Shown here in pieces: positions 19,491 through 30,570 of a DNA stretch of 64,000 nucleotides. This DNA comes from an uncultured Gammaproteobacteria bacterium (GTDB lineage Bacteria; Patescibacteriota; Microgenomatia; UBA10105; UBA927). Position 1 is the first letter of the stretch. Each line of letters opens with the position of its first letter. Location: contig CAZGOA010000001.1 in NCBI GenBank assembly GCA_964527425.1, forward strand, positions 98,435 through 162,434, in the 5' to 3' direction. The position numbers were made by a program, and so were the translations under genes. Under the pieces are notes generated by a model, which ran no database searches, had not been told where the DNA came from, and saw only the letters and a list, made by a program, of their open reading frames with translations.

Positions 19491-19763
19491 TTAAACGAAG
19501 AGCACTGTATAAAGCAACACAAGCCCTACAGCTGCTACGGATACATATTCTACTATGACTCGGGGGTATAAGTCACGTTCTATCACATGAAAAATTATTC
19601 CCCATAACACATATGATAATGCACAGACAAATCCAATTAAGAATTGCAAATCTCGTTTTCCATTTAACACAACAAACGTTACGAGACTCAATCCCAATAT
19701 TATCCCCAACACAATCATATGAAGATGCTTATGGGAGACAATATGTTCTTTTTTATGTGTCAT
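19491..19763 (-). CDS. Small two-TM membrane protein (hypothetical)
   Basis: 90 aa with two hydrophobic helices. Its stop overlaps the upstream gene by 4 bp. Confidence 0.3.
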   Translation of the reverse strand: MTHKKEHIVSHKHLHMIVLGIILGLSLVTFVVLNGKRDLQFLIGFVCALSYVLWGIIFHVIERDLYPRVIVEYVSVAAVGLVLLYTVLFV

Positions 19764-20737
19764 AAGATACTACCTCGCAATACAACATTCATACTTACTA
19801 TCATTATTCCAAAGAACAACATATGGGCAACAGATGATCCTACAGCACGGATTGTTCTTTTTTTCATAGCAACATACATATCTACTAACATAATTCCTAT
19901 TAAGACTCCAGCAAAAGCCATACTAATATCGCGCCTCAATGCTACAATATCAAATTTAGGTGCAATCAAAACCGAGCTAAATGCAGGGAATATTCCAGAA
20001 TTAGGCTGTACTTCTGTTACAGAAGCAACTTCTGGAATAACTACAGGTGCTTGCGTTACTATTGGTGATATTTCTGGTGCTTGAGCTAGCACTGGTGGTA
20101 TAACCTCTTGGGCAATTGGTTGTTGGGAAACTTCTGTTGCAGGTGATGGTTCTGCAGCAACAACAACTCTTCCATTCGGTTGCGATCCAAACATCTGCAC
20201 AACTAAGGTCGTTTCTTCACCTTGAAGTGTGCCATTTACTACAGCAAATCCGACTTCTTTATAATTTGGTTTTAAAAGATTTTCTTTGTGACTTGGAGAA
20301 TTCATCCAGGCATTTACAACACCGTTACTATCTTGAAAATTTTTGGCCAGATTTTCACCAGCGACACTGTACTTATATCCAGCACCATTAATAAAATCCC
20401 ATGGTGTTTTACCGTCTGGAGAAACATGCGCCCAATAATTTTTACCAAACATATCAGAAGCTTTTCCGGCAGCTGCCTGAGAAAGCTGAGGATTAAGACT
20501 TAATGCAGGCAAACCTGCCTCTGCCCTTTTTGCATTGGTTTCGGCAAGTAATTGCTGAACATGAATATTCGTTGCGTACCCTAAAATATCTGGATGATTA
20601 ATGCTAATAACTCTTGTTGCTACATTAAAAATAACAAAGGCAAATGCATAGACAAACATCGCATCGATATGTAATGCTTTTGCTCTGTGATTATTTGAAT
20701 GATGCGGTACGAACCAATGTTTAAGTGTATGAAACAT
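19760..20737 (-). CDS. CAP/SCP/PR-1 (YkwD-like) domain protein with a C-terminal membrane anchor
   Basis: 325 aa. An N-terminal TM helix, then LLAETNAKRAEAGLPALSLNPQLSQAAAGKASDM...YWAHVSPDG...GENLAKN...WMNSPSHKENLL, which is the CAP-domain signature. A Pro/Val-rich linker and C-terminal TM helices follow. Confidence 0.7.
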   Translation of the reverse strand: MFHTLKHWFVPHHSNNHRAKALHIDAMFVYAFAFVIFNVATRVISINHPDILGYATNIHVQQLLAETNAKRAEAGLPALSLNPQLSQAAAGKASDMFGKNYWAHVSPDGKTPWDFINGAGYKYSVAGENLAKNFQDSNGVVNAWMNSPSHKENLLKPNYKEVGFAVVNGTLQGEETTLVVQMFGSQPNGRVVVAAEPSPATEVSQQPIAQEVIPPVLAQAPEISPIVTQAPVVIPEVASVTEVQPNSGIFPAFSSVLIAPKFDIVALRRDISMAFAGVLIGIMLVDMYVAMKKRTIRAVGSSVAHMLFFGIMIVSMNVVLRGSIL

Positions 20738-20786: not shown

Positions 20787-21344
20787 TTATACTGGCTTTG
20801 CAAAAACAACCCGACGTTTCTGATCAAAACTACCTTCACACGTATACAATGTTAATTGATCCTCTTTGGATAAAATCACGTCAACATCCGTGGGTTTAAC
20901 CGTTCTTGATTCTGTAACGATGTAGGTATGTTTATTGTTGTTTTGATCTACTTCAATGACATCTCCAGGAGTCAGCTTGTATAAATCTGCCCATAATTGT
21001 TTTCTGTTATGAGCATACAATATAACATTACCTTCTCCTGGAACAGATGATGTTGAAAGCCAAGCGACTGAAGCATCAAACATATCCCACTGATTATCAT
21101 GCACGAGGGCGGCTTGGATAGGTAAATTTTTATTAATTTTCGGAATATAAATACTGGTAGGCTGCTGTTTTGTTACAGGAGTTACACGTATACTTACTGC
21201 TGAAGTTCCAGCCGGATCTATAACCGGCATTTCATTCTTTTTTTCTCTGAAAATATAAAATCCCGCTAGTACAACAAAACCAACAACAACAGAAACTACC
21301 AACGTTTTGATACTCTTAATTATTAATGAAGCATTAGGAACCAT
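20787..21344 (-). CDS. Sortase (transpeptidase)
   Basis: An N-terminal TM anchor, a catalytic His region (VILYAHN) and the TLxTC catalytic cysteine motif (LTLYTCEGSFDQKRR). The start is taken at the internal Met (MVPNAS, codon at 21342..21344) so that it does not run 55 bp into the upstream gene. Confidence 0.7.
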   Translation of the reverse strand: MVPNASLIIKSIKTLVVSVVVGFVVLAGFYIFREKKNEMPVIDPAGTSAVSIRVTPVTKQQPTSIYIPKINKNLPIQAALVHDNQWDMFDASVAWLSTSSVPGEGNVILYAHNRKQLWADLYKLTPGDVIEVDQNNNKHTYIVTESRTVKPTDVDVILSKEDQLTLYTCEGSFDQKRRVVFAKPV

Positions 21345-22440
21345 GAGTTGCTCTGCGGAAATACACAACTCCTGATATAAAGGCTGCAATAATTGCAGTC
21401 ATCCAGGCTATAAATACATTTCGATTATAACTACCCGTTGCTGCTAATACATCAGTTGAAGCACCGAGCACCTGACCTTGACTTGTTGAAACGCCAAGTA
21501 CCTGTCCTCCACTGGTTGAACTCTCTGAAGAAGCATCTCCAGGAGTACAGTCATTAACTGCTCTGACAATAAAAAAGTAGTTAGCGTTAGGATCAAGTCC
21601 TCCAACAGTATAGATAGTTACGTTTCCTGTAGAAGGTACGCCGTATTGATAATTTCCTGAACTCGTTCCGTAGGAAATAGCATAACTTGTAGCATTGCTT
21701 GCTTGTGTCCAGGTTAGTTGAACAGTAGAACCACTTGTTCTTTGCACTGAGGTAATGCTTGGAGTACCCGGTTTTGATGCGGTACATGGTGTTGGTTGAC
21801 TATTGTTTACAGTACTTGAGCTGCCACCACCATTGTTGTTATTATTTCCCGGTGTTGGAGTTGGAGTAATAATTCCAGTTGGTGTTGGTGTTACCGTCAC
21901 TTCCGGACAAGATTCTCCTTGGGTTATACGTACTCCGTCAACATCATAGCCGTCTGCAGTATCATCAACGAAATTATCTGGACTGCTGATATCTGTAATG
22001 CGTACGTATCGAACACAAACGGATGATTCACCCTGAGATAATTCTCCAGTTTGGGTAACTGAACCTAAATTGGTCCATGTTGCATTATCTGAAGATACCT
22101 CAACTTGAGCTTCTTCTGAAGGATAGCCAGGGTTGGTTGATTCTACGACAACAACTCCACCCATAACTGGATTATTAAATTGAAGTTTAATCGTCCCACC
22201 AAATCCTAAAGAAAAAAATGTTCCATCGACAATCGTTTCTTCTGCAACGCCAACTGCCTGACTTGCATCACTGCGTATTCCTGGAACTGGACTCCCATTT
22301 TTCATGAGTCCTTGAGAAGAACTTACAACACTATCAGCCCATGGACCTGATCCATCAGGGGCTGCTGCTAAAGCAGTTGTTGCCGACAAAGAACAAATAA
22401 CAAAAAGAACAAAGGTTAAAAATCCCGTATATAATTTCAT
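21334..22440 (-). CDS. Secreted cell-wall-anchored protein: unknown N-terminal domain, fibronectin type III domain, and a LAATG sortase sorting signal
   Basis: 368 aa. Signal peptide MKLYTGFLTFVLFVICSLSATTALAAAP. A shared ~170-aa N-terminal domain. A Pro/Thr/Asn/Gly linker. An FN3-like module (TSVQRTSGSTVQLTWTQASNATSYAISYG...YFFIVRAVN). C-terminus LAATGS + hydrophobic helix + FRRATHGS, which is the classic sorting-signal architecture. Confidence 0.6.
   Translation of the reverse strand: MKLYTGFLTFVLFVICSLSATTALAAAPDGSGPWADSVVSSSQGLMKNGSPVPGIRSDASQAVGVAEETIVDGTFFSLGFGGTIKLQFNNPVMGGVVVVESTNPGYPSEEAQVEVSSDNATWTNLGSVTQTGELSQGESSVCVRYVRITDISSPDNFVDDTADGYDVDGVRITQGESCPEVTVTPTPTGIITPTPTPGNNNNNGGGSSSTVNNSQPTPCTASKPGTPSITSVQRTSGSTVQLTWTQASNATSYAISYGTSSGNYQYGVPSTGNVTIYTVGGLDPNANYFFIVRAVNDCTPGDASSESSTSGGQVLGVSTSQGQVLGASTDVLAATGSYNRNVFIAWMTAIIAAFISGVVYFRRATHGS
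21855..22365 (-). repeat. Duplicated ~0.5-kb coding segment (copy 1), encoding the shared N-terminal domain of the two secreted paralogs
   Basis: Long stretches of nucleotide-level identity with 22793..23303. For example gcagcccctgatggatcaggtccatgggctgatagtgttgtaagttcttctcaagg in gene 1 matches gcagcgccagatggattaggcccatgggctgatagtgttgttagttcttctcaagg in gene 2. Confidence 0.55.
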
Positions 22441-22556
22441 AATTTTTATAGATTTATAATATATCTATGGGATATTATACAATATCTCATAATTATTAAC
22501 AAGCGCTCTAGTATAACCCCTTATTGAGAAGACTGAAGGCATGTATTCCTCTAGAT

Positions 22557-23384
22557 TTAGTTCCCTCCAATAACAACCTGTATATTTCCACTATCGCAAC
22601 AGCCACAACCTGTTAAGGCATTATTGCCACCCAACACAGTAACGTTAGTTTTTGCTTTCGCATTTCCTGTAACAAAACTATTTGTACCTCCTACTGTATT
22701 TTTTATTTTATTTTTTCCAGTTTTAGCTTTATTTACTATACTATTTCCCACATTTGTTACAGACGCTTGTGAAACAGTACATGTAGAACTTTTGTTAATT
22801 ATTACTGTACTAGAGCCACTATTCCCTCCACCTTCGGGAGGTGAGCATGGTGTTCCATCTACCGTTTTTACACCATCTACATCATATCCATCAGCAGTAT
22901 CTTCAGCGAATTGTTCTGGATTACTCGTATCTGTAATTCTCACATATTTAGCACAAGGAACTTGAGATGGCATAGATACTTGACCATCAGTTGTTACACT
23001 CCCTGCTGTAACCCAAGTTGATCCATCTGCAGATACCTCAACTTGTGCAGTTTCGTTGGGATATCCAGGATTGGTTGCCTCAACTGCTATGACTCCGCCG
23101 GAAACCGTATTATCAAAAGATAAAGTAATTGATCCTCCAAATCCTAAAGAATAGAATGTTCCCTCAATAGTTGTATCTTCTGCAACACCCAATGCTTGAC
23201 TTGCATCGCTACGTATTCCAGGAACTGAAACACCATTTTTCATGAGACCTTGAGAAGAACTAACAACACTATCAGCCCATGGGCCTAATCCATCTGGCGC
23301 TGCTGCGTAAGCACTGGAAGAACAAAAGAATACGAACGCTCCCACAACAGAGAGCAATGTTAACTTGGGCAGTAGTTTATTCAT
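22557..23384 (-). CDS. Secreted protein paralogous to the N-terminal domain of the preceding sortase substrate, with no anchor
   Basis: 275 aa. Signal peptide, then AAPDGLGPWADSVVSSSQGLMKNG...ADGYDVDGV, which is highly similar to the 21334..22440 N-terminus. The C-terminus is Gly/Asn/Thr/Lys-rich and ends in a CGCC motif. Confidence 0.5.
   Translation of the reverse strand: MNKLLPKLTLLSVVGAFVFFCSSSAYAAAPDGLGPWADSVVSSSQGLMKNGVSVPGIRSDASQALGVAEDTTIEGTFYSLGFGGSITLSFDNTVSGGVIAVEATNPGYPNETAQVEVSADGSTWVTAGSVTTDGQVSMPSQVPCAKYVRITDTSNPEQFAEDTADGYDVDGVKTVDGTPCSPPEGGGNSGSSTVIINKSSTCTVSQASVTNVGNSIVNKAKTGKNKIKNTVGGTNSFVTGNAKAKTNVTVLGGNNALTGCGCCDSGNIQVVIGGN
22793..23303 (-). repeat. Duplicated ~0.5-kb coding segment (copy 2)
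   Basis: Same as copy 1. This indicates a recent tandem gene/domain duplication. Confidence 0.55.
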
Positions 23385-23454: not shown

Positions 23455-24573
23455 TCAAGTAGTTTTTATATACTTTACTGCGATTGAAGACAATATTGTG
23501 GATATAGGAACACCTAATACTAATCCAAAACTACCAGATAACGTTCTGACTACTTCTTCAGCTATAAACTCACTATTGAAAATTACCCATGCTGGTTGAT
23601 TTTGCGGATTAAGCACAAAGAAAATAAATAAGGGAAAAGAAACACCTGCATAAGCTAAGACTAACGTATTTACCAAAGAAGCAATGTGTTCTCGTCCAAG
23701 TGAAAAGCCTCTCACAATTAAATCTTTTACTGAAAGTTGTCGGTTTTCTTTATATAAAGCAAATAGTGCTGCAACTTGACTTGTGGTTACATCATCCAAT
23801 ATACCCAAAATACCTAAAATCATTCCTCCTAATAATAGTCCGCGTAAATTTAAATCAGGCAATTGTCCTACTTGTAACAAATACGCTTCTTCTGATCCTG
23901 TCCCTGAGAGCATTAATACCGATACAGCAATATATGAAATACATCCTGCAATAAGAAGAGTGAAAGCCGTTGCCACTAATGAAACAGCTGTCTGCCATTT
24001 AAATCCATGTGCTAAAAACATAGTGACTACTAACATGACTATAGCTCCAAGAATAGATACCGTTACAGGGTTTGCTCCATTTAAAATCTGAGGAACTACA
24101 AATTGCAAAATAACAATCGCACTAACAAGTAACCCAATTAATGATCCTAATCCTTGCTTTCCAGCTATAATAATAACCAAAATAATAAATAAGATTGTAA
24201 ATACTCTAAGACCAGGTAATCTATATCTATCGATAATTCGAAGTTGCTCTTTATTTTCTTGACTTATATCTCTTTGCAAAACAACACTGTCATTTACTGT
24301 TAATAATTGATCGGAACGTAATGTTTGATCTGTACCATAATCTACAATAAATTCATTATCTTTCCGCTCACCTTGCATAACTCGTACTTTTAATCTCTGA
24401 TATGGTTGTTTTTGTTCTAAAACTGTTAACTCTCCACTATCTATTATTTGTACGACAGAAACAGGCAAAAATTCTTCAGAAGAATTACTACTCTGAGGCA
24501 TTATTCTCAATAATCCCCAGAGACTAATTATTAACACTACAATCAGAAACAACTGTTTCCTTAAAGATTTCAT
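23455..24573 (-). CDS. YibE/F-like polytopic membrane protein
   Basis: 372 aa. An N-terminal TM helix, a ~120-aa extracytoplasmic domain, then about 7 Gly-rich TM helices (LLGGMILGILGILDDVTTSQVAALFALY), which is the architecture of the YibE/F family. Confidence 0.45.
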   Translation of the reverse strand: MKSLRKQLFLIVVLIISLWGLLRIMPQSSNSSEEFLPVSVVQIIDSGELTVLEQKQPYQRLKVRVMQGERKDNEFIVDYGTDQTLRSDQLLTVNDSVVLQRDISQENKEQLRIIDRYRLPGLRVFTILFIILVIIIAGKQGLGSLIGLLVSAIVILQFVVPQILNGANPVTVSILGAIVMLVVTMFLAHGFKWQTAVSLVATAFTLLIAGCISYIAVSVLMLSGTGSEEAYLLQVGQLPDLNLRGLLLGGMILGILGILDDVTTSQVAALFALYKENRQLSVKDLIVRGFSLGREHIASLVNTLVLAYAGVSFPLFIFFVLNPQNQPAWVIFNSEFIAEEVVRTLSGSFGLVLGVPISTILSSIAVKYIKTT

Positions 24574-24647: not shown

Positions 24648-25910
24648 TTAATGTTGTACTGTAAATGACTTTAACTTTGAAAGTAATCCTTGTATAGAAT
24701 ATAGTATTTTTTCAATAATATTCTTGGTTGGTCTTATAACTGTAATATTTCTAATCTCTATTTCTTTAGAGAGTCCTAATTCAAAAGTATGTGCTTGAAA
24801 TTCATCATTTTTAGATACTTCAATTTTTGTCAATGTCCCAGGCAATGGAAGAGAATATCTTCCTTCTTTATCTGTGTATCGAACTATTGATCCTTCTAGT
24901 GCAGAAATTTTTGCATTGCTAATTCTATTACCAAATTGATCTGACACCACACCTTTAAGCTCTGGACTATTGAAAAATGAATGAATTACATCTACAGCTC
25001 TTTTAGGCTGTAATGTTTTCTCATCAAATAAGGTTGTACTGCCACCGAATGCAGTCCAATAATTAACACCTTGAACAATATCTCCTAATGCGACAACTTT
25101 TGCCAGATTTTCTTGAATGTATGAAGATTGCTGGGTTTCTGTGAATGTTCCATGAATATCTGGAATTGGAGCCCCAAATTCTCCTAATACTATGGGTGCA
25201 TCGTATTTTTCGTGTAGTGATTTGATATCAGCAATTAATTGATCTGATGTTTTTACAAAGTGATCTATAACAACCACATTACCTGTTTTCTTAACCATCT
25301 CTTTCGTAAATATCTCGCGAGCGATATCCCCATTAACAGAGTAGTATCCACATATTATTTTTATATTTATTATTTCTGCTGCTTTTAAACACGTATCGTA
25401 TGACTCAATAAGAAATTCTCTGAATGCTTGTGCTTTAACAGAACTTCCTCTTGGATCGCCTGGTCCACCATTTTCTGCTTCTGGCACTGGTGTAAAAATA
25501 TCCCCATCTTTAAATAACTCTGGATGAGTAGTTATAAATTCAAACGTTTTACGATGATGATCTTTGGGATCTTTAAATGTTTCATATCCAAACCAACCTT
25601 CCCATTCTGACCAATTTCCTCGATACCAAATATTCATCCCATATTTTCTTGCCTCATTTACCCAAGTTGATAAGACTGAATAAAATTCTTCGTTGTACGG
25701 TGTTGCCACGACAATATGCGTTGGATCCATACTTGCTACTAAGTTTACCCACGTTGGAATTCGCTCGTTTACATCCGGTTCTCTAGAAATATCCCGAGAA
25801 TATTTCATTGTATCTATAGACTGAATTGGCCAAAATGCTACAGCAGATATGCTAGTGGTAGGTATACATAATAATATCCATCCAATAATGAGAATAACTC
25901 CATTTCTCAT
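24648..25910 (-). CDS. Secreted TIM-barrel glycoside-hydrolase-like protein with a C-terminal CarbopepD_reg/Cna-B-like beta-sandwich
   Basis: 420 aa with a signal peptide. NIWYRGNWSEWEGWFG and VPEAENGGPGDP resemble the clan GH-A catalytic acid/base (NEP-like) region. The C-terminal GVVSDQFGNRISNAKISALEGSIVRYTDKEGRYSL is typical of carboxypeptidase-regulatory-like domains. Confidence 0.35.
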   Translation of the reverse strand: MRNGVILIIGWILLCIPTTSISAVAFWPIQSIDTMKYSRDISREPDVNERIPTWVNLVASMDPTHIVVATPYNEEFYSVLSTWVNEARKYGMNIWYRGNWSEWEGWFGYETFKDPKDHHRKTFEFITTHPELFKDGDIFTPVPEAENGGPGDPRGSSVKAQAFREFLIESYDTCLKAAEIINIKIICGYYSVNGDIAREIFTKEMVKKTGNVVVIDHFVKTSDQLIADIKSLHEKYDAPIVLGEFGAPIPDIHGTFTETQQSSYIQENLAKVVALGDIVQGVNYWTAFGGSTTLFDEKTLQPKRAVDVIHSFFNSPELKGVVSDQFGNRISNAKISALEGSIVRYTDKEGRYSLPLPGTLTKIEVSKNDEFQAHTFELGLSKEIEIRNITVIRPTKNIIEKILYSIQGLLSKLKSFTVQH

Positions 25911-25912
25911 AA

Positions 25913-27499
25913 TTAATCCCTTCTCTTAAACACTAAAATGTCTGGAGAGGTATACACTTTATCAAAATGAGCATATAGTCTGGCTTCAATTTCAGGTTTT
26001 TCTAGCATTGCATTCCATATCGCATCACTTTTCTGCAAAACAATCCATCGAGCATGTTTTTCCGGAGTAACCAGTGATTCTTCCCAATATGGCTTAGTAC
26101 CAATATAAATAATTTTTTTCATGGGTATTCCACTTCGAACGACACTAACAGTGCGTGCATAATCATCAAACAGTACTAATCCACCGTCATAATTATGATA
26201 CATCCATTGTTCAGCATCTGGCTTTTTAGCATGAGATAAACCTTGTATTCCATCGATATAGCTAATTGCTTTGGAGTATCCTACTCCATAAAAAAAGTAT
26301 TGCAGACAAAATAAACTGATTATCATTAGTTTACCTAACCGCTGTACTTTAAAAAACAAATAACCTACAAACACAGCAACTACTGGAATCATCATCACAC
26401 CATATCTTACATTGAATAATCTCCATTCAAAATCTTTTGGTGTAATGTGAGGAATAAATATTACCGATTGACCGACGTATAATGTAATGACATAGAACAA
26501 AAATGGAGCAACCATCAATCCACCTATCATGAGTCTTTCAATACGGTTTTCTCTTTTAAAGGCAAAACGGAAAAAACCAACAATACTTAAGAAAAAAAGG
26601 AGAAATCCACTGTTGCTCATAGAAGTCGTAAAGTAGTATAAAAATGAAAGCCAGATATCTTTATATGCGGGAAGTTGGCCTTTAGCAAGCCAAGCTTGCT
26701 GCTGTGTTCGAGCACTAAATTCACTTTGGGTAAAATAGAATGCATTTCCTAATATAAGTTGTCCCCACAATAACCACAGAAATATTCCAAAAAAAGCAAA
26801 TGTACAAAATATAACTACAGATCCTTCAATTTTTTTCCAGGGTGACTTCTTAAGGAGACCTAATATAACAATAATAGCCGCCTGCATCATTACCAAGAAC
26901 CATCCATCGTATCGACTTAATACTGCCAAAAATCCAAATCCTGCAGATAATATTAGAGACTGCATTGCTTGAATATTTTTTATGTAACGGATAAAAAAGT
27001 AACTTGATAAGATGAAAAAAGCAATCAATGGTAATTCTGTCATTGCAGTTGACTGTAGATACAAAATATTAGGATTTAACATGAAAATCCAAGAAGAAAC
27101 AACAGATGCTGTTCTGTTTTTCGTAATTAACATTACTAATTTGTAAAGTGTAATAGTCGTAATTACGTAACAAAACCCAGAAACAATAGAACCTGCAAGT
27201 CCTGTTCTCCACAAAAAATCAGACCAAATAAAAGGAAGCATCATAATATGTGGAACTGGAAGCCATATTCCACCCAATTGTGCTGCCCCCGGAGTAAGAC
27301 TTGTTACTACACGTTTAGCAATGTTTAAATGAGATTCAGTATCTCCATAAGCAACTAATTCACCCTTACTAAAAAATATTCCAGTAGCAATAATTGCAAA
27401 AGCTATTGATGGAACTATCACTAAATATACCCAAGGCACATTGGTAAACCATTCTATTATTTCTTTTATTTTTTGTGTTGGTATTGTAATACGAATCAT
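25913..27499 (-). CDS. GT-C-like polytopic membrane glycosyltransferase candidate (PMT/ArnT-like)
   Basis: 528 aa with more than 10 TM helices. The acidic first loop (VAYGDTESHLNIAKRV) resembles a DE motif. A C-terminal soluble domain is present. Confidence 0.45.
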   Translation of the reverse strand: MIRITIPTQKIKEIIEWFTNVPWVYLVIVPSIAFAIIATGIFFSKGELVAYGDTESHLNIAKRVVTSLTPGAAQLGGIWLPVPHIMMLPFIWSDFLWRTGLAGSIVSGFCYVITTITLYKLVMLITKNRTASVVSSWIFMLNPNILYLQSTAMTELPLIAFFILSSYFFIRYIKNIQAMQSLILSAGFGFLAVLSRYDGWFLVMMQAAIIVILGLLKKSPWKKIEGSVVIFCTFAFFGIFLWLLWGQLILGNAFYFTQSEFSARTQQQAWLAKGQLPAYKDIWLSFLYYFTTSMSNSGFLLFFLSIVGFFRFAFKRENRIERLMIGGLMVAPFLFYVITLYVGQSVIFIPHITPKDFEWRLFNVRYGVMMIPVVAVFVGYLFFKVQRLGKLMIISLFCLQYFFYGVGYSKAISYIDGIQGLSHAKKPDAEQWMYHNYDGGLVLFDDYARTVSVVRSGIPMKKIIYIGTKPYWEESLVTPEKHARWIVLQKSDAIWNAMLEKPEIEARLYAHFDKVYTSPDILVFKRRD

Positions 27500-29121
27500 A
27501 TTTTAATCCTTAATTTTTTGCTCACAAACCGTAAACCTTTTCGAAGATAAAAAAATTCTGGAAAATGGTACCCTTCTGGTCTTTGCGTGATACTTTCTAT
27601 TAACAGTAAAATGAATACAGTTGTATTGATTATTGCTAATAATACAGCTCCATATTGAGACAACGTAATACTATTGCTGAACCATTCTTTATACGCGAAA
27701 ACTCCCGTTTTCCCTTCAAATAAATAGAATAAATTAGCAATGTAGTTATACTGTAATCCTAAAGGTATACCTTCAACTTTTGGTGGAATAACATTTGTCG
27801 TCAATACTCCTAACACAGAAATAGCAGTTGAAAAAATAAAAAGTGGAATAAATACGAATCTCCCTACCCAAGGCAGAAAAAATTTGTGAAGAAATATTCC
27901 AACAAATAGTGAAATAAATGCCATCCCCGGAATTAAATATCTTGGTCCATATGCCCATCCCCCCCAAGGATCTCCAAAACTGGCATACAATAAAATATTA
28001 ACTATACATAATGAAATAAGAATATTTTGTTCAAAAGGGTTATATTTCTTTTTGAAAAACCAAGCAATAATTCCAAGTATTAGAACAGGTGAATAAAAGA
28101 ATAAACCACGATCATTAGCGTATGTAAGTGACTCCAATCCCCTCACAACTCGCTCTTCATCGAATACACTAAAAGGATTTGATGTATTTCGACTTGTTTG
28201 TAAAGTACCCGAAATTGTTGCCTCAGCTTCTTTCAATGCTAATTTTGCTTCATATTTTTCTTTCCCTTCGTAGCGAGAAAATGATTGACCAATTTTTTTA
28301 TAATCCCCAAAAGCTATATGATTATAATATCCATGAGCTGCTACCAAAACGATAAAAAATACTGAAGTGAAAATAAAAGCTGGCCTAATTGTGAGAAATT
28401 GTTTTTTATTGTTATCTTCAATATTCAATGAAGAAAGAAAAAAGTAAAACATTATTGGTAATCCTAAAAAAACACTCGGAAAATCTATAAACAAACCGAC
28501 ACCATATGAAAACCAAACCAATGCTGCCCAAAAAAAAGATAAGAATTTTTTTTGTCTAAATCTCCACGCGGCATAAAAAGATAACAACAAAAAGAAAGTT
28601 ATTGGAATATGTTGATATATAGTAACAGCATAACTCCAAGACGTTGTTGCAAATGCCCAAATAATTGGCACGATAGCAGATATCGCTATAGATAAATTCA
28701 ATATTTGTCTACTAATGAAGTATAGAATAACAATACTACCTATTGCATACAAAGAAATTGAGGCATATGAAATTACTTGTGAAAGCTCATAATATTTTCC
28801 AATAGTATAAAATGGATATAGTATAAATGACACTCCAGGTGGAAAAAGAATAAAATATTTACCATTAGTAATACCAACATCTGGTGAGCCGAATTCTGCC
28901 AATTCTTCACTTAAATTTATTTGTTTATTATTAACAATTGATAGTAATAAAGCATATGGAGCACGCTCATGTGATGATTCAAAAGGCATACCAATAGATG
29001 TAAAACGCTTACCTGATGTATGATCAATATCACCCCTGACACCACGAACTGTAGCGCTATAGAGCACTATTGAAATTATTACAATAAAAACTAAACTAAC
29101 AAAGGAAAATAAAGTCCGCAT
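27496..29121 (-). CDS. Polytopic membrane protein, possible GT-C glycosyltransferase
   Basis: 541 aa with more than 10 TM helices and a central soluble loop. No definitive motif. Overlaps the downstream GT-C-like gene by 4 bp. Confidence 0.35.
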   Translation of the reverse strand: MRTLFSFVSLVFIVIISIVLYSATVRGVRGDIDHTSGKRFTSIGMPFESSHERAPYALLLSIVNNKQINLSEELAEFGSPDVGITNGKYFILFPPGVSFILYPFYTIGKYYELSQVISYASISLYAIGSIVILYFISRQILNLSIAISAIVPIIWAFATTSWSYAVTIYQHIPITFFLLLSFYAAWRFRQKKFLSFFWAALVWFSYGVGLFIDFPSVFLGLPIMFYFFLSSLNIEDNNKKQFLTIRPAFIFTSVFFIVLVAAHGYYNHIAFGDYKKIGQSFSRYEGKEKYEAKLALKEAEATISGTLQTSRNTSNPFSVFDEERVVRGLESLTYANDRGLFFYSPVLILGIIAWFFKKKYNPFEQNILISLCIVNILLYASFGDPWGGWAYGPRYLIPGMAFISLFVGIFLHKFFLPWVGRFVFIPLFIFSTAISVLGVLTTNVIPPKVEGIPLGLQYNYIANLFYLFEGKTGVFAYKEWFSNSITLSQYGAVLLAIINTTVFILLLIESITQRPEGYHFPEFFYLRKGLRFVSKKLRIKI

Positions 29122-29274: not shown

Positions 29275-30570
29275 TTATGCATTTGTATGATTTAGTGAAG
29301 ATTTTGGTGAGCTAAATACTGTTCTTAATACTTCTATGTTGTTTTTTGCTTTATGGAGATATGCAGGGAGTGATTTTTTTAGTACTTCTCTATATAACTT
29401 TCTCCCATTTACTAAATTGTTAAAAGTATAGTCTAACGTATCTAGTGACACTTGATTTATTGGAATAACCCACTCACTTAAATTTAAATCTTTCATAATT
29501 CCAATAGTTTTATTCTCATAGGCTATTGCAATTGTAGGGACATACCCGGTTAGTGCAAGAATAGCTGAATGCATACGAGTAGCAACTAAATAATTTGCAG
29601 ATTCATATAGAGATTTAATTTCATATGTCGATAGTTCTTCTTTAATAACAATAACTTTGTCTGGTGATTTTAGCTTATTAATTAATGTATTAATTACTTT
29701 GCTGTCATCATCATTATGTAAAGTAGATGTACATTGAGGTACTAATACTACCTGGATATTGTTATTTAACAAAAGCTTTTCGATAAATAACTGTATAGAT
29801 TTTAAATAATATGAATAAATTGGTTCTTTTAAACGCTTAACAGTAATCATTACAACAGTTTTTTTTGTATTTATTCCAAATCTATTAAATAACATTAAAG
29901 ATGAAAATTTTATAGTGGATTTAAAAAGAAATGCCGCATCTACAGATCGATAAATAATATTTGGTTTAACTCCGATTTTTTTTAGATACGACATAGATAT
30001 ATCTTCTCTGACTAGAATTGCTTGAGTAAAATTTAAGATATATGATACATACCATTCTTGTAATTTTGATTTAAATGAACCAATAGATTGTGAGTATAAA
30101 CATACAGGTTTTCTGAGTATTTTTGCAAGTAAAAATACATGTAGATGAAGTATGAGAGTTATATAGGTATTTATCGATTTATCACCTACTAAATATCCTC
30201 CACCTGTTCCAATAACTAAATTAGATTTTTTTAACTTTAATAAAAATGTATTTAATTCTGCTGAAAAAAGAAAATAAATATTTATACCAATAAACTTATT
30301 AAGCAAAGCCCAAATGAGTGTGTTTGAGATTAGATAGCATGTTTTTATAAATCTTAAAATACTATTACTATGCTTATAAATCGCTTCATAAAAAATAGAA
30401 GTCAATAATAAGACTTCTTTATCTATTTTAGATTCTTCTAAACCTGCCATTGAAGATATCGATACATTTACATTTGGATATACTTTCCTTAACTGTGCGA
30501 TTAGACTGATGAGGATTGCAGCGTCTCCTTTATTTTTATTAGAATAATAGTTAGTAATTAATACATCCAT
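29275..30570 (-). CDS. Polysaccharide pyruvyl transferase (CsaB/WcaK family)
   Basis: 431 aa. The N-terminal LITNYYSNKNKGDAAILISL matches the GxxNxGD motif of PS_pyruv_trans. The C-terminal VATRMHSAILALTGYVPTIAIAYENK matches the conserved RxH...G.P...Y..K block. Confidence 0.6.
   Translation of the reverse strand: MDVLITNYYSNKNKGDAAILISLIAQLRKVYPNVNVSISSMAGLEESKIDKEVLLLTSIFYEAIYKHSNSILRFIKTCYLISNTLIWALLNKFIGINIYFLFSAELNTFLLKLKKSNLVIGTGGGYLVGDKSINTYITLILHLHVFLLAKILRKPVCLYSQSIGSFKSKLQEWYVSYILNFTQAILVREDISMSYLKKIGVKPNIIYRSVDAAFLFKSTIKFSSLMLFNRFGINTKKTVVMITVKRLKEPIYSYYLKSIQLFIEKLLLNNNIQVVLVPQCTSTLHNDDDSKVINTLINKLKSPDKVIVIKEELSTYEIKSLYESANYLVATRMHSAILALTGYVPTIAIAYENKTIGIMKDLNLSEWVIPINQVSLDTLDYTFNNLVNGRKLYREVLKKSLPAYLHKAKNNIEVLRTVFSSPKSSLNHTNA

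Follow-up and report, generated by a model that had tools for sequence, protein, structure and literature searches.

The 64,000-nucleotide stretch of contig CAZGOA010000001.1 analysed here (hereafter the window) carries three co-oriented genes on its minus strand at 20787-23384, which encode a sortase (20787..21344), an adjacent secreted protein with a C-terminal sorting signal (gene A, 21334..22440) and a paralog of the latter without such a signal (gene B, 22557..23384), all within the interval noted in a preliminary description of this DNA. The three genes probably make up a conserved sortase/substrate cassette of the Microgenomates type, in which protein A displays a lectin-like head and protein B is an old, non-anchored paralog that carries a basic repeat. 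The sortase is 185 amino acids long plus a stop codon, as checked by translation; gene A is a 368-residue open reading frame (ORF) whose full-length homologs share its architecture (one is 99% identical, many others 45-63%), and gene B is an ORF of 275 residues. The ATG at 21344 is taken as the start of the sortase gene since it is used by gene callers on identical contigs and all homologs are likewise about 185 residues long, which results in an 11-nt overlap with the 3′ end of gene A; the longest possible sortase ORF begins at a TTG at 21389 and would extend the overlap to 56 nt. In the whole window there is one sortase, one ORF with a sorting signal (gene A) and two copies of the domain shared between genes A and B.

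The architecture of protein A is that of a wall-anchored surface protein. Reading from its N-terminus, it consists of a Sec-type signal peptide (22366..22440, with the cleavage site …TALA|AAPDG predicted from the sequence), a 155-residue head with a predicted fold of the CBM32/discoidin-like, galactose-binding-domain-like kind (21901..22365), a linker rich in Pro/Thr and Asn/Gly/Ser (21763..21900) and a fibronectin type III (FN3) domain (21517..21762), which matches PF00041 over residues 227-308 with an E-value of 1.5e-9 and a score of 38.3 bits against a threshold of 25, and retrieves FN3 chains in a profile search of the PDB. The FN3 domain is followed by an extended sorting signal, TSGGQVLGVSTSQGQVLGASTDV plus LAATG (21433..21516, with the pentapeptide at 21433-21447), and by the spacer SYNR, a hydrophobic helix and a basic tail (21337..21432), so that the C-terminus as a whole reads GQVLGASTDVLAATG-SYNR-NVFIAWMTAIIAAFISGVVYF-RRATHGS, with 21 residues in the hydrophobic segment. 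The layout of an LPXTG-type sorting signal, namely a pentapeptide, a hydrophobic segment and a positively charged tail, is thereby present in gene A, and the NCBIfam LPXTG anchor model finds no match in it. A Lys at the start of the FN3 domain, within the motif CTAxKPGTP, is also conserved among the A-type proteins.

The tripartite signal is kept in 70 of the 171 homologs that bear the shared domain, and the pentapeptide in these is most often LAATG (37 proteins), followed by LGATG (11), LPNTG (6), LASTG (3) and LANTG (3). The conservation reaches well beyond the pentapeptide: the nine residues preceding it read QVLGASTD(T/V) in almost every case, with another GQVLGxST a few residues earlier, and the overall conserved signal can be written as GQVLGASTDxL(A/G)ATG. 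Shorter proteins without the FN3 domain end in the same extended signal, which among 79 loci is restricted to proteins that bear the shared domain.

That the neighboring enzyme reads this signal is most strongly indicated by the co-variation of motif and sortase clade across loci. A substrate with L(A/G)xTG adjoins a member of the short, 185-residue sortase clade in seven loci out of seven (the window, L001, L002, L003, L008, L011 and L020), whereas in all four loci with (L/F)PNTG-type relatives (L019, L086, L087 and L088) the neighbors are a pair of class-F-like sortases, scoring 102-118 bits, and a further substrate of the Ig-like kind. At least 14 further pairs of an A-type gene and a sortase gene share a contig. 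As judged from these sequence comparisons, the sortase and the adjacent LAATG-bearing FN3 protein are almost certainly a cognate pair, and gene A is likely a dedicated substrate. The pairing proposed in the preliminary description is supported by the conserved order of the two genes and by the co-variation, as is its view of gene A as a secreted FN3 protein that ends in LAATG, a helix and a basic tail. In the four loci with the (L/F)PNTG-type signal, the gene A relatives end in repeated FPNTG/LPNTG motifs and lie in a different operon of pilus-like layout, where the second substrate is a protein of about 300-340 residues with two DUF11/Ig-like domains and an FPETG/FPSTG-type signal, and the two sortases comprise a long one of about 328 residues with a C-terminal transmembrane segment and a shorter one.

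By its sequence, the enzyme itself is a sortase. It passes the peptidase C60 model PF04203 (85.5 bits against a cut-off of 26.6, E 3e-24) and TIGR01076 (45.2 against 39.35 bits), and consists of an N-terminal membrane anchor, TLVVSVVVGFVVLAGFYIF (21249..21305), which corresponds to a hydrophobic N-terminus in 36 of 36 aligned homologs, and a catalytic domain (20790..21152). His112 in YAHN (21009-21011), Cys169 in TLYTC (20838-20840; local sequence QLTLYTCEG) and Arg177 in QKRR (20814-20816) are invariant in the alignment of the 36 homologs, and the earlier assignment of a sortase with a TLxTC motif overlapping the 3′ end of its substrate accordingly stands, with only the length of the overlap depending on the start codon.

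The class of the enzyme is another matter. None of the NCBIfam class models is reached at its cut-off, with scores of 55.4 bits for class C (cut-off 160), 45.4 for SrtD (140), 44.4 for class E (160), 43.5 for class D (165) and 33.1 for class F (166). A profile built from the 36 homologs finds class A (2kw8, the SrtA of Bacillus anthracis, 1.7e-11) and class C structures in the PDB about equally well, and no class E structure is among its 48 matches. LAXTG is the motif recognized by class E, the hallmarks of which in SrtE1 are a Tyr in the β3/β4 loop at the S3 subsite and an insertion of about 21 residues between β6 and β7 relative to class A (PMC5148588). In the window sortase, the stretch that probably corresponds to the β3/β4 loop reads VAWLSTS, with Trp95 and Leu96 invariant among the 36 homologs and no Tyr. 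A long β6/β7 insertion of the class E type is likewise not seen, the segment VKPTDVDVILSKEDQLTLYTC before the catalytic Cys being of class A length when set against Staphylococcus aureus SrtA. The class-E-like character proposed earlier therefore holds for the LAXTG motif but not for the enzyme. A single residue of the β3/β4 loop was considered as a determinant of the P3 preference and discarded, as both sortase clades carry VAW(L/F) and no simple one-residue determinant emerges. Taken together, the sequence data place the enzyme in a short, Patescibacteria-specific clade that appears to fit none of the classes A-F. The sortase family has already been reported as near-ubiquitous in Microgenomates (PMC6744442), and our literature search found no paper naming a substrate or a signal of the Microgenomates sortase.

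Genes A and B share an N-terminal region of about 155-173 residues with 65% protein identity (BLASTP E 8e-75), as the preliminary description had recognized; it had further regarded the copies as recently duplicated and highly identical at the nucleotide level, and neither of these two points survives closer comparison. Over 180 aligned codons the DNA identity is 66%, and over most of the head the identity at third codon positions is 0.3-0.5, which is near chance for an AT-rich genome. Codons 21-70 approximately (22230-22380 in A and 23170-23320 in B, about 150 nt) are more alike, with 80-88% DNA identity and 0.6-0.8 identity at third positions; this local similarity may reflect gene conversion between old paralogs, or constraint. 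Gene A, searched against 5.8 billion proteins, returned 308 relatives, labelled as Patescibacteria, Levybacteria, Woesebacteria and similar, of which about 40 are full-length A-type proteins with head, FN3 domain and anchor at 42-63% identity and many others are proteins of about 280 residues without FN3. For gene B, full-length orthologs were found at 83% and 69% identity and then by the dozen at about 50-55%, all with the same C-terminal module. In a neighbor-joining tree of 164 heads the window A groups with the A-type proteins P0001, P0003 and P0005, and the window B with P0066, P0073 and P0072, so that the two are not sisters, and in several genomes A, B and a third, head-only paralog of about 210 residues are found on one contig. 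Since many Microgenomates-type genomes contain separate orthologs of either paralog and A and B are not sisters, the duplication is old and the paralogs are long separated.

The head (22839..23303 in gene B, 255 bits with the hidden Markov model, HMM, of the family) is predicted by AlphaFold2, from an alignment of 57 sequences, to form a confident β-sandwich, with a predicted local distance difference test score (pLDDT) of 93.3 and a predicted template modelling score (pTM) of 0.89. The top Foldseek match of the model is the CBM32 of AlyB (4.4e-5), followed by F5/8-type-C domains of chitobiase, with TM-scores of 0.45-0.58, and the viral structures matched are likewise F5/8-type-C proteins; the closest matches are mostly CBM32 and F-lectin modules, with 9-20% identity to solved structures. 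The lectin-like nature suggested earlier is in this respect borne out by the predicted fold. The family nonetheless has its own conserved features, as the motifs APDGxGPWAD, SLGFGG, ExTNxxYPxE and ADGYDVDGV and two Cys residues are invariant across A- and B-type copies, and the heads are strongly acidic, with a net charge of -15 to -16 in the window and -12 to -16 overall. In the numbering of the head, invariant positions include Q18, R31, E75, Y81, E84, D138, D141 and D143. No Pfam or NCBIfam model reaches its threshold for the head, no NCBIfam choice-of-anchor model matches it even at E ≤ 10, and a PDB profile search, made with an alignment that included the FN3 columns, returned FN3 chains only and none that matches the head by sequence. 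Judging by the structural model, the head appears to be a divergent, unnamed family within the galactose-binding-domain-like superfamily.

Relatives of the head are not confined to the Patescibacteria. A scan of one genome per species gave 130 of them, including members from Saccharibacteria, Thermoleophilia/Solirubrobacterales, Acidobacteriota, Anaerolineae, a Woesearchaeote and many Bacteroidota. The Bacteroidota members occur in tandem arrays of four to five paralogous genes (for proteins of about 780, 725, 566, 470 and 495 residues; L047, L053, L056, L058, L073 and L077), and all three head proteins tested from one such array (L056) end in a type A sorting domain of the type IX secretion system (T9SS), with the rest of each protein lacking any family match. 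As the head is fused to T9SS tails in Bacteroidota and to a sortase signal in Patescibacteria, it behaves as a surface or secreted display module that uses the anchor of each lineage. In the Levybacteria protein P0115 and in Solirubrobacterales proteins (L022, L025 and L026) the region after the head gives a sub-threshold match (19-26 bits against 40) to the NCBIfam model post-COAP-1. Although this name points to a choice-of-anchor P domain upstream, none of the choice-of-anchor models matches the head.

Protein B consists of a signal peptide (23304..23384), the 155-residue head, a short linker and a C-terminal module of 77 residues rich in Asn, Thr, Gly and Lys that ends in CGCC...VVIGGN (22560..22790). 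Pfam, NCBIfam and the ORF scan of the window reveal no sorting signal, transmembrane segment or known wall-binding domain in it. The module is conserved in 57 of 57 aligned B-type proteins, where several Q, N and G positions hardly vary and Cys residues flank it, and represents one basic copy of an unnamed, Cys-bracketed and Asn/Thr/Gly-rich repeat of about 85-95 residues. An exhaustive search of 1.84 billion representatives with the module yielded 58 proteins (P0291-P0348), most of which have a signal peptide and no head and contain either two copies of the repeat in about 200 residues or three to five in about 400-500. The HMM of the B tail matches each stand-alone repeat at 1e-17 to 1e-25, and the consensus can be written as VxQxNxTxVxNxVxxxAxTGxNxAxxNTGGxVxVxTGDAxxxVxVxNxxNxN...C..C...IxGNGxxSxN, for which Pfam, NCBIfam and a PDB profile search at E ≤ 10 offer no counterpart. 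The B tails are consistently basic (+6 in the window; mean +6.5, range +1 to +9, n = 57), whereas a strongly acidic mean of -10.5 is found for the repeats in the long stand-alone proteins. The B tail being a conserved member of a real repeat family, gene B represents a distinct architecture and not an A that lost its anchor. Of the earlier notion of an anchor-less, released version, the shared head and the missing sorting signal hold; the conserved C-terminal repeat means that B is not simply a truncated copy. The repeat proteins end in odd hydrophobic or aromatic tails, for example ...FNLNLSFDLNDLLEALLG, and two stand-alone repeat genes that were looked up (L083 and L085) adjoin sortase genes, one of them also lying near wall-glycan genes (PMT_2, GH18 and a deacetylase).

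A possible mode of action of the cassette can be outlined as follows. Protein A would be exported via the Sec pathway and held in the membrane by its tripartite C-terminal signal, upon which the membrane-bound sortase, by analogy to characterized sortases, would cleave LAATG between Thr and Gly and move A onto a wall precursor. The resulting wall-bound stalk would consist of the Ser/Thr/Gly-rich segment, the FN3 domain and the Pro/Thr-rich linker, with the acidic CBM32/discoidin-like head outermost, and the modelled fold suggests that the head most likely binds a glycan. As the head is unusually conserved and the cassette fixed in a locus for wall-glycan biosynthesis, an invariant polymer would be a likelier ligand than a host receptor that varies, a candidate being the rhamnose-containing or pyruvylated wall polysaccharide of the cell itself. 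Protein B would be secreted and would probably stay attached to an anionic wall polymer or to acidic partners without a covalent bond, through its charge or through contacts between repeats. The sortase clade would have evolved, or kept, a preference for Ala or Gly at P3, and under this model the enzyme is expected to cleave after the Thr in peptides of the GASTDVLAATGSY/GASTDVLGATGSY type, with Ala or Gly at P3.

Several observations weigh against parts of the cassette model. Gene B is not always beside gene A, being 4 kb away in L003 and not within 6 kb in L008, and the view of A as a dedicated substrate is drawn from synteny and from 64 kb of sequence, not from a whole genome. The module of B is left unfolded by AlphaFold2 (57-sequence alignment, pLDDT 51, no secondary structure), which makes its assigned role a guess. 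The fold class of the head also holds proteins that bind something other than glycans, among them muskelin, IFT25, APC10 and a lipoprotein that binds B12. Finally, the sequence of the gene A head falls short of the thresholds of the nearest known models (PF00754 and PF22633), with 25.0 bits against 27.8 for F5_F8_type_C_2 and 18.7 against 28.2 for the second F5/8-type-C model; the gene B head scores 20.6 and 14.5 bits with the same models, also below threshold, and 15 of 57 family members match F5_F8_type_C_2 at E < 0.01 (best 7.5e-5), with all 57 below the gathering score. The preliminary description had been unable to place the domain in a named family, which is right in that no model is passed and must be tempered by this near miss, and it had regarded a match to the discoidin/F5-8 type C family with a defined function as evidence against its account; such a match exists at the level of the fold class, with a sub-threshold sequence and no defined ligand.

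Other explanations of the same genes are conceivable. The one initially put forward, a recent tandem duplication into a copy processed by a class-E-like sortase and a copy that is released simply by lacking an anchor, could draw on the overall protein identity of the two heads, on the 150 or so nucleotides of high DNA similarity, on LAXTG being the class E motif (PMC5148588) and on the head of A being slightly closer to that of B (67%) than to other A-type heads (55-64%). It is most improbable, as A and B have separate orthologs and fall apart in the tree, two-thirds of the head show a third-position identity close to background, B has its conserved repeat module, and the sortase scores 44 bits against the 160 required for class E and retrieves no class E structure. 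The related idea that B is a freely released head, acting as a soluble scavenger or competitor with the C-terminal module as a mere disordered tail, would agree with the missing sorting signal, transmembrane segment and wall-binding domain and with the lack of structure predicted for the tail; this is a real though rather unlikely possibility, given that the tail is conserved over 57 proteins down to near-invariant Q, N, G and flanking Cys residues, is consistently basic and shares homology with the repeats of which entire secreted proteins are made.

That protein A is a pilin or a pilus-tip adhesin polymerized by a pilus-type sortase seems very unlikely, even though class C gives the best, if weak, class score (55 bits), the FN3 domain begins with a conserved Lys and the (L/F)PNTG relatives lie in pilus-like operons that encode two sortases and another substrate of the Ig-like kind. 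The 64 kb of the window contain a single sortase and a single substrate, class C would require 160 bits, no lid motif of the pilus type is conserved in the variable N-terminal region of the 36 sortase homologs and protein A has no recognizable pilin motif. The Pam pili of Patescibacteria are unrelated and were rejected as a match, since they assemble by donor-strand exchange, involve no sortase and are encoded in a different operon. A further reading makes the head a protein-binding or self-assembling unit and not a lectin, with A and B forming a proteinaceous coat. The presence of protein and cofactor binders in its fold class, the many residues invariant across both paralogs, which would suit a fixed protein partner, and the opposite charges of the very acidic heads and the basic B tails all speak for it; we regard it as unlikely in view of the nearest structures being mostly CBM32 and F-lectin modules, the sub-threshold signal to galactose-binding F5/8-type-C models and the glycan-related neighborhood. 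More speculative and decidedly improbable is a scheme where A would be the covalent base of a Patescibacteria-specific coat or sheath, with B and the repeat proteins of two to five copies docking on A or on the wall polymer via head-glycan and basic-acidic repeat contacts, in a division into long anchored and short free forms that would resemble the chaplins with wholly different domains.

The surroundings of the cassette bear out the envelope-glycan setting named in the preliminary description. The wider neighborhood in the window encodes RmlA, RmlB, RmlD, UDP-glucose dehydrogenase, a fusion of a family 2 glycosyltransferase (GT2) with GtrA, a PMT_2 enzyme of the GT-C type, further GT4 and GT2 enzymes and a polysaccharide pyruvyl transferase, that is, genes for rhamnose and UDP-sugars, for glycosyl transfer and for pyruvylation. 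In distant relatives with 53-55% identity the order is GT-C-like membrane proteins, a secreted glycoside hydrolase (GH)-like protein with CarboxypepD_reg, B in some cases, A, the sortase, a CAP/YkwD protein, a DUF5656-like protein, RmlA and more dTDP-rhamnose genes, and the window has the same order. The CAP/YkwD protein (19760-20737, minus strand) follows the sortase and has a membrane helix at both its N- and C-terminus and a match below cut-off to the NCBIfam model DalA, a divisome-associated lipoprotein; after it comes a DUF5656-like membrane protein of 90 residues (19491-19763, minus strand). The retention of this order after the sortase in distant relatives suggests that both genes are part of the same functional unit. 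Between genes B and A, a promoter-like site TTGTTA-17-TATAAT (22474..22502, minus strand) is the best match of the region at 10 of 12 positions; it is weak evidence for a promoter, as the total number of matches in a promoter and terminator scan of the region was not above that expected from shuffled sequence. Transfer RNA and Rfam scans of the window found nothing.

Upstream of the cassette lie a secreted GH-like protein with weak matches to Glyco_hydro_cc and CarboxypepD_reg and two proteins of about 530 residues without any Pfam match (24648-25910, 25913-27499 and 27496-29121, respectively). As a weak PMT_2 match is seen among their positional counterparts in L001, the two may be divergent GT-C glycosyltransferases, possibly ones that glycosylate the Pro/Thr-rich linkers. 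A membrane protein of the YibE/F family (23455-24573) is situated between the GH-like gene and gene B, is missing there in L001 and L008, which are otherwise syntenic, and is probably a lineage-specific insertion. The polysaccharide pyruvyl transferase of the glycan locus (29275-30570) matches PF04230 with an E-value of 5e-33. The SLH domains of Gram-positive bacteria bind pyruvylated wall polymers, and the basic tail of gene B could thus have a wall polymer of anionic character as its partner. Several contigs that combine the cassette with gene content of the Patescibacteria type (L004, L006, L009, L014, L018-L020 and L024) carry record titles such as 'uncultured Gammaproteobacteria bacterium' or 'Bacteriovorax sp.' (third-party annotation, TPA), which are probably taxonomic mislabels.

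Compared with known systems, the window sortase resembles the class A and class E housekeeping enzymes in its PF04203 domain, its His/Cys/Arg triad, its TLxTC motif and its N-terminal membrane anchor, and gene A resembles LPXTG-type substrates in its pentapeptide, hydrophobic helix and basic tail, with Ala at P3 as in the LAXTG of class E. Unlike those systems, the enzyme passes no class model (at best 55 bits, with cut-offs of 140-166), the signal is extended and lineage-specific, with a duplicated GQVLGxST followed by D-x-L-(A/G)-A-T-G, and the sortase is translationally coupled to what is apparently one dedicated substrate. The head, in turn, differs from the named CBM32, F5/8 type C and F-type lectin modules in having its own conserved motifs, no attached catalytic domain and sub-threshold scores in Pfam. 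Like the choice-of-anchor domains of NCBIfam, it is combined with different terminal sorting devices depending on the phylum and in some proteins precedes a sub-threshold post-COAP-1 match, but unlike them it is matched by none of the models for such domains. The Streptomyces chaplins follow the same logic as A and B, with long LAXTG-anchored and short free forms of one module in one organism; in contrast to these, A and B have no chaplin domain by Pfam and no hydrophobic sequence of the amyloid type, and the likeness is one of analogy only.

The arrangement is real and goes far beyond chance; each component is of a known kind, the cassette is fairly ordinary, and current understanding is not overturned. 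Worth recording are the extended Ala/Gly-type signal that goes with a short sortase clade outside the known classes, and a pair of extracellular families that are widespread and have no database model, namely the CBM32-like head, which ranges from Patescibacteria to Bacteroidota and Thermoleophilia, and the repeat of about 90 residues. A non-class-E sortase that apparently accepts Ala or Gly at P3 is of interest for the study of sortase specificity and for protein engineering. The Patescibacteria account for much of bacterial diversity and live in attachment to other cells, yet hardly anything is known of what their surface displays. Against this background, the near-universal Microgenomates sortase gains a likely dedicated substrate and an explicit recognition sequence, GQVLGASTDxL(A/G)ATG, and the head becomes a candidate handle on a wall glycan or a partner-cell ligand of the Patescibacteria.

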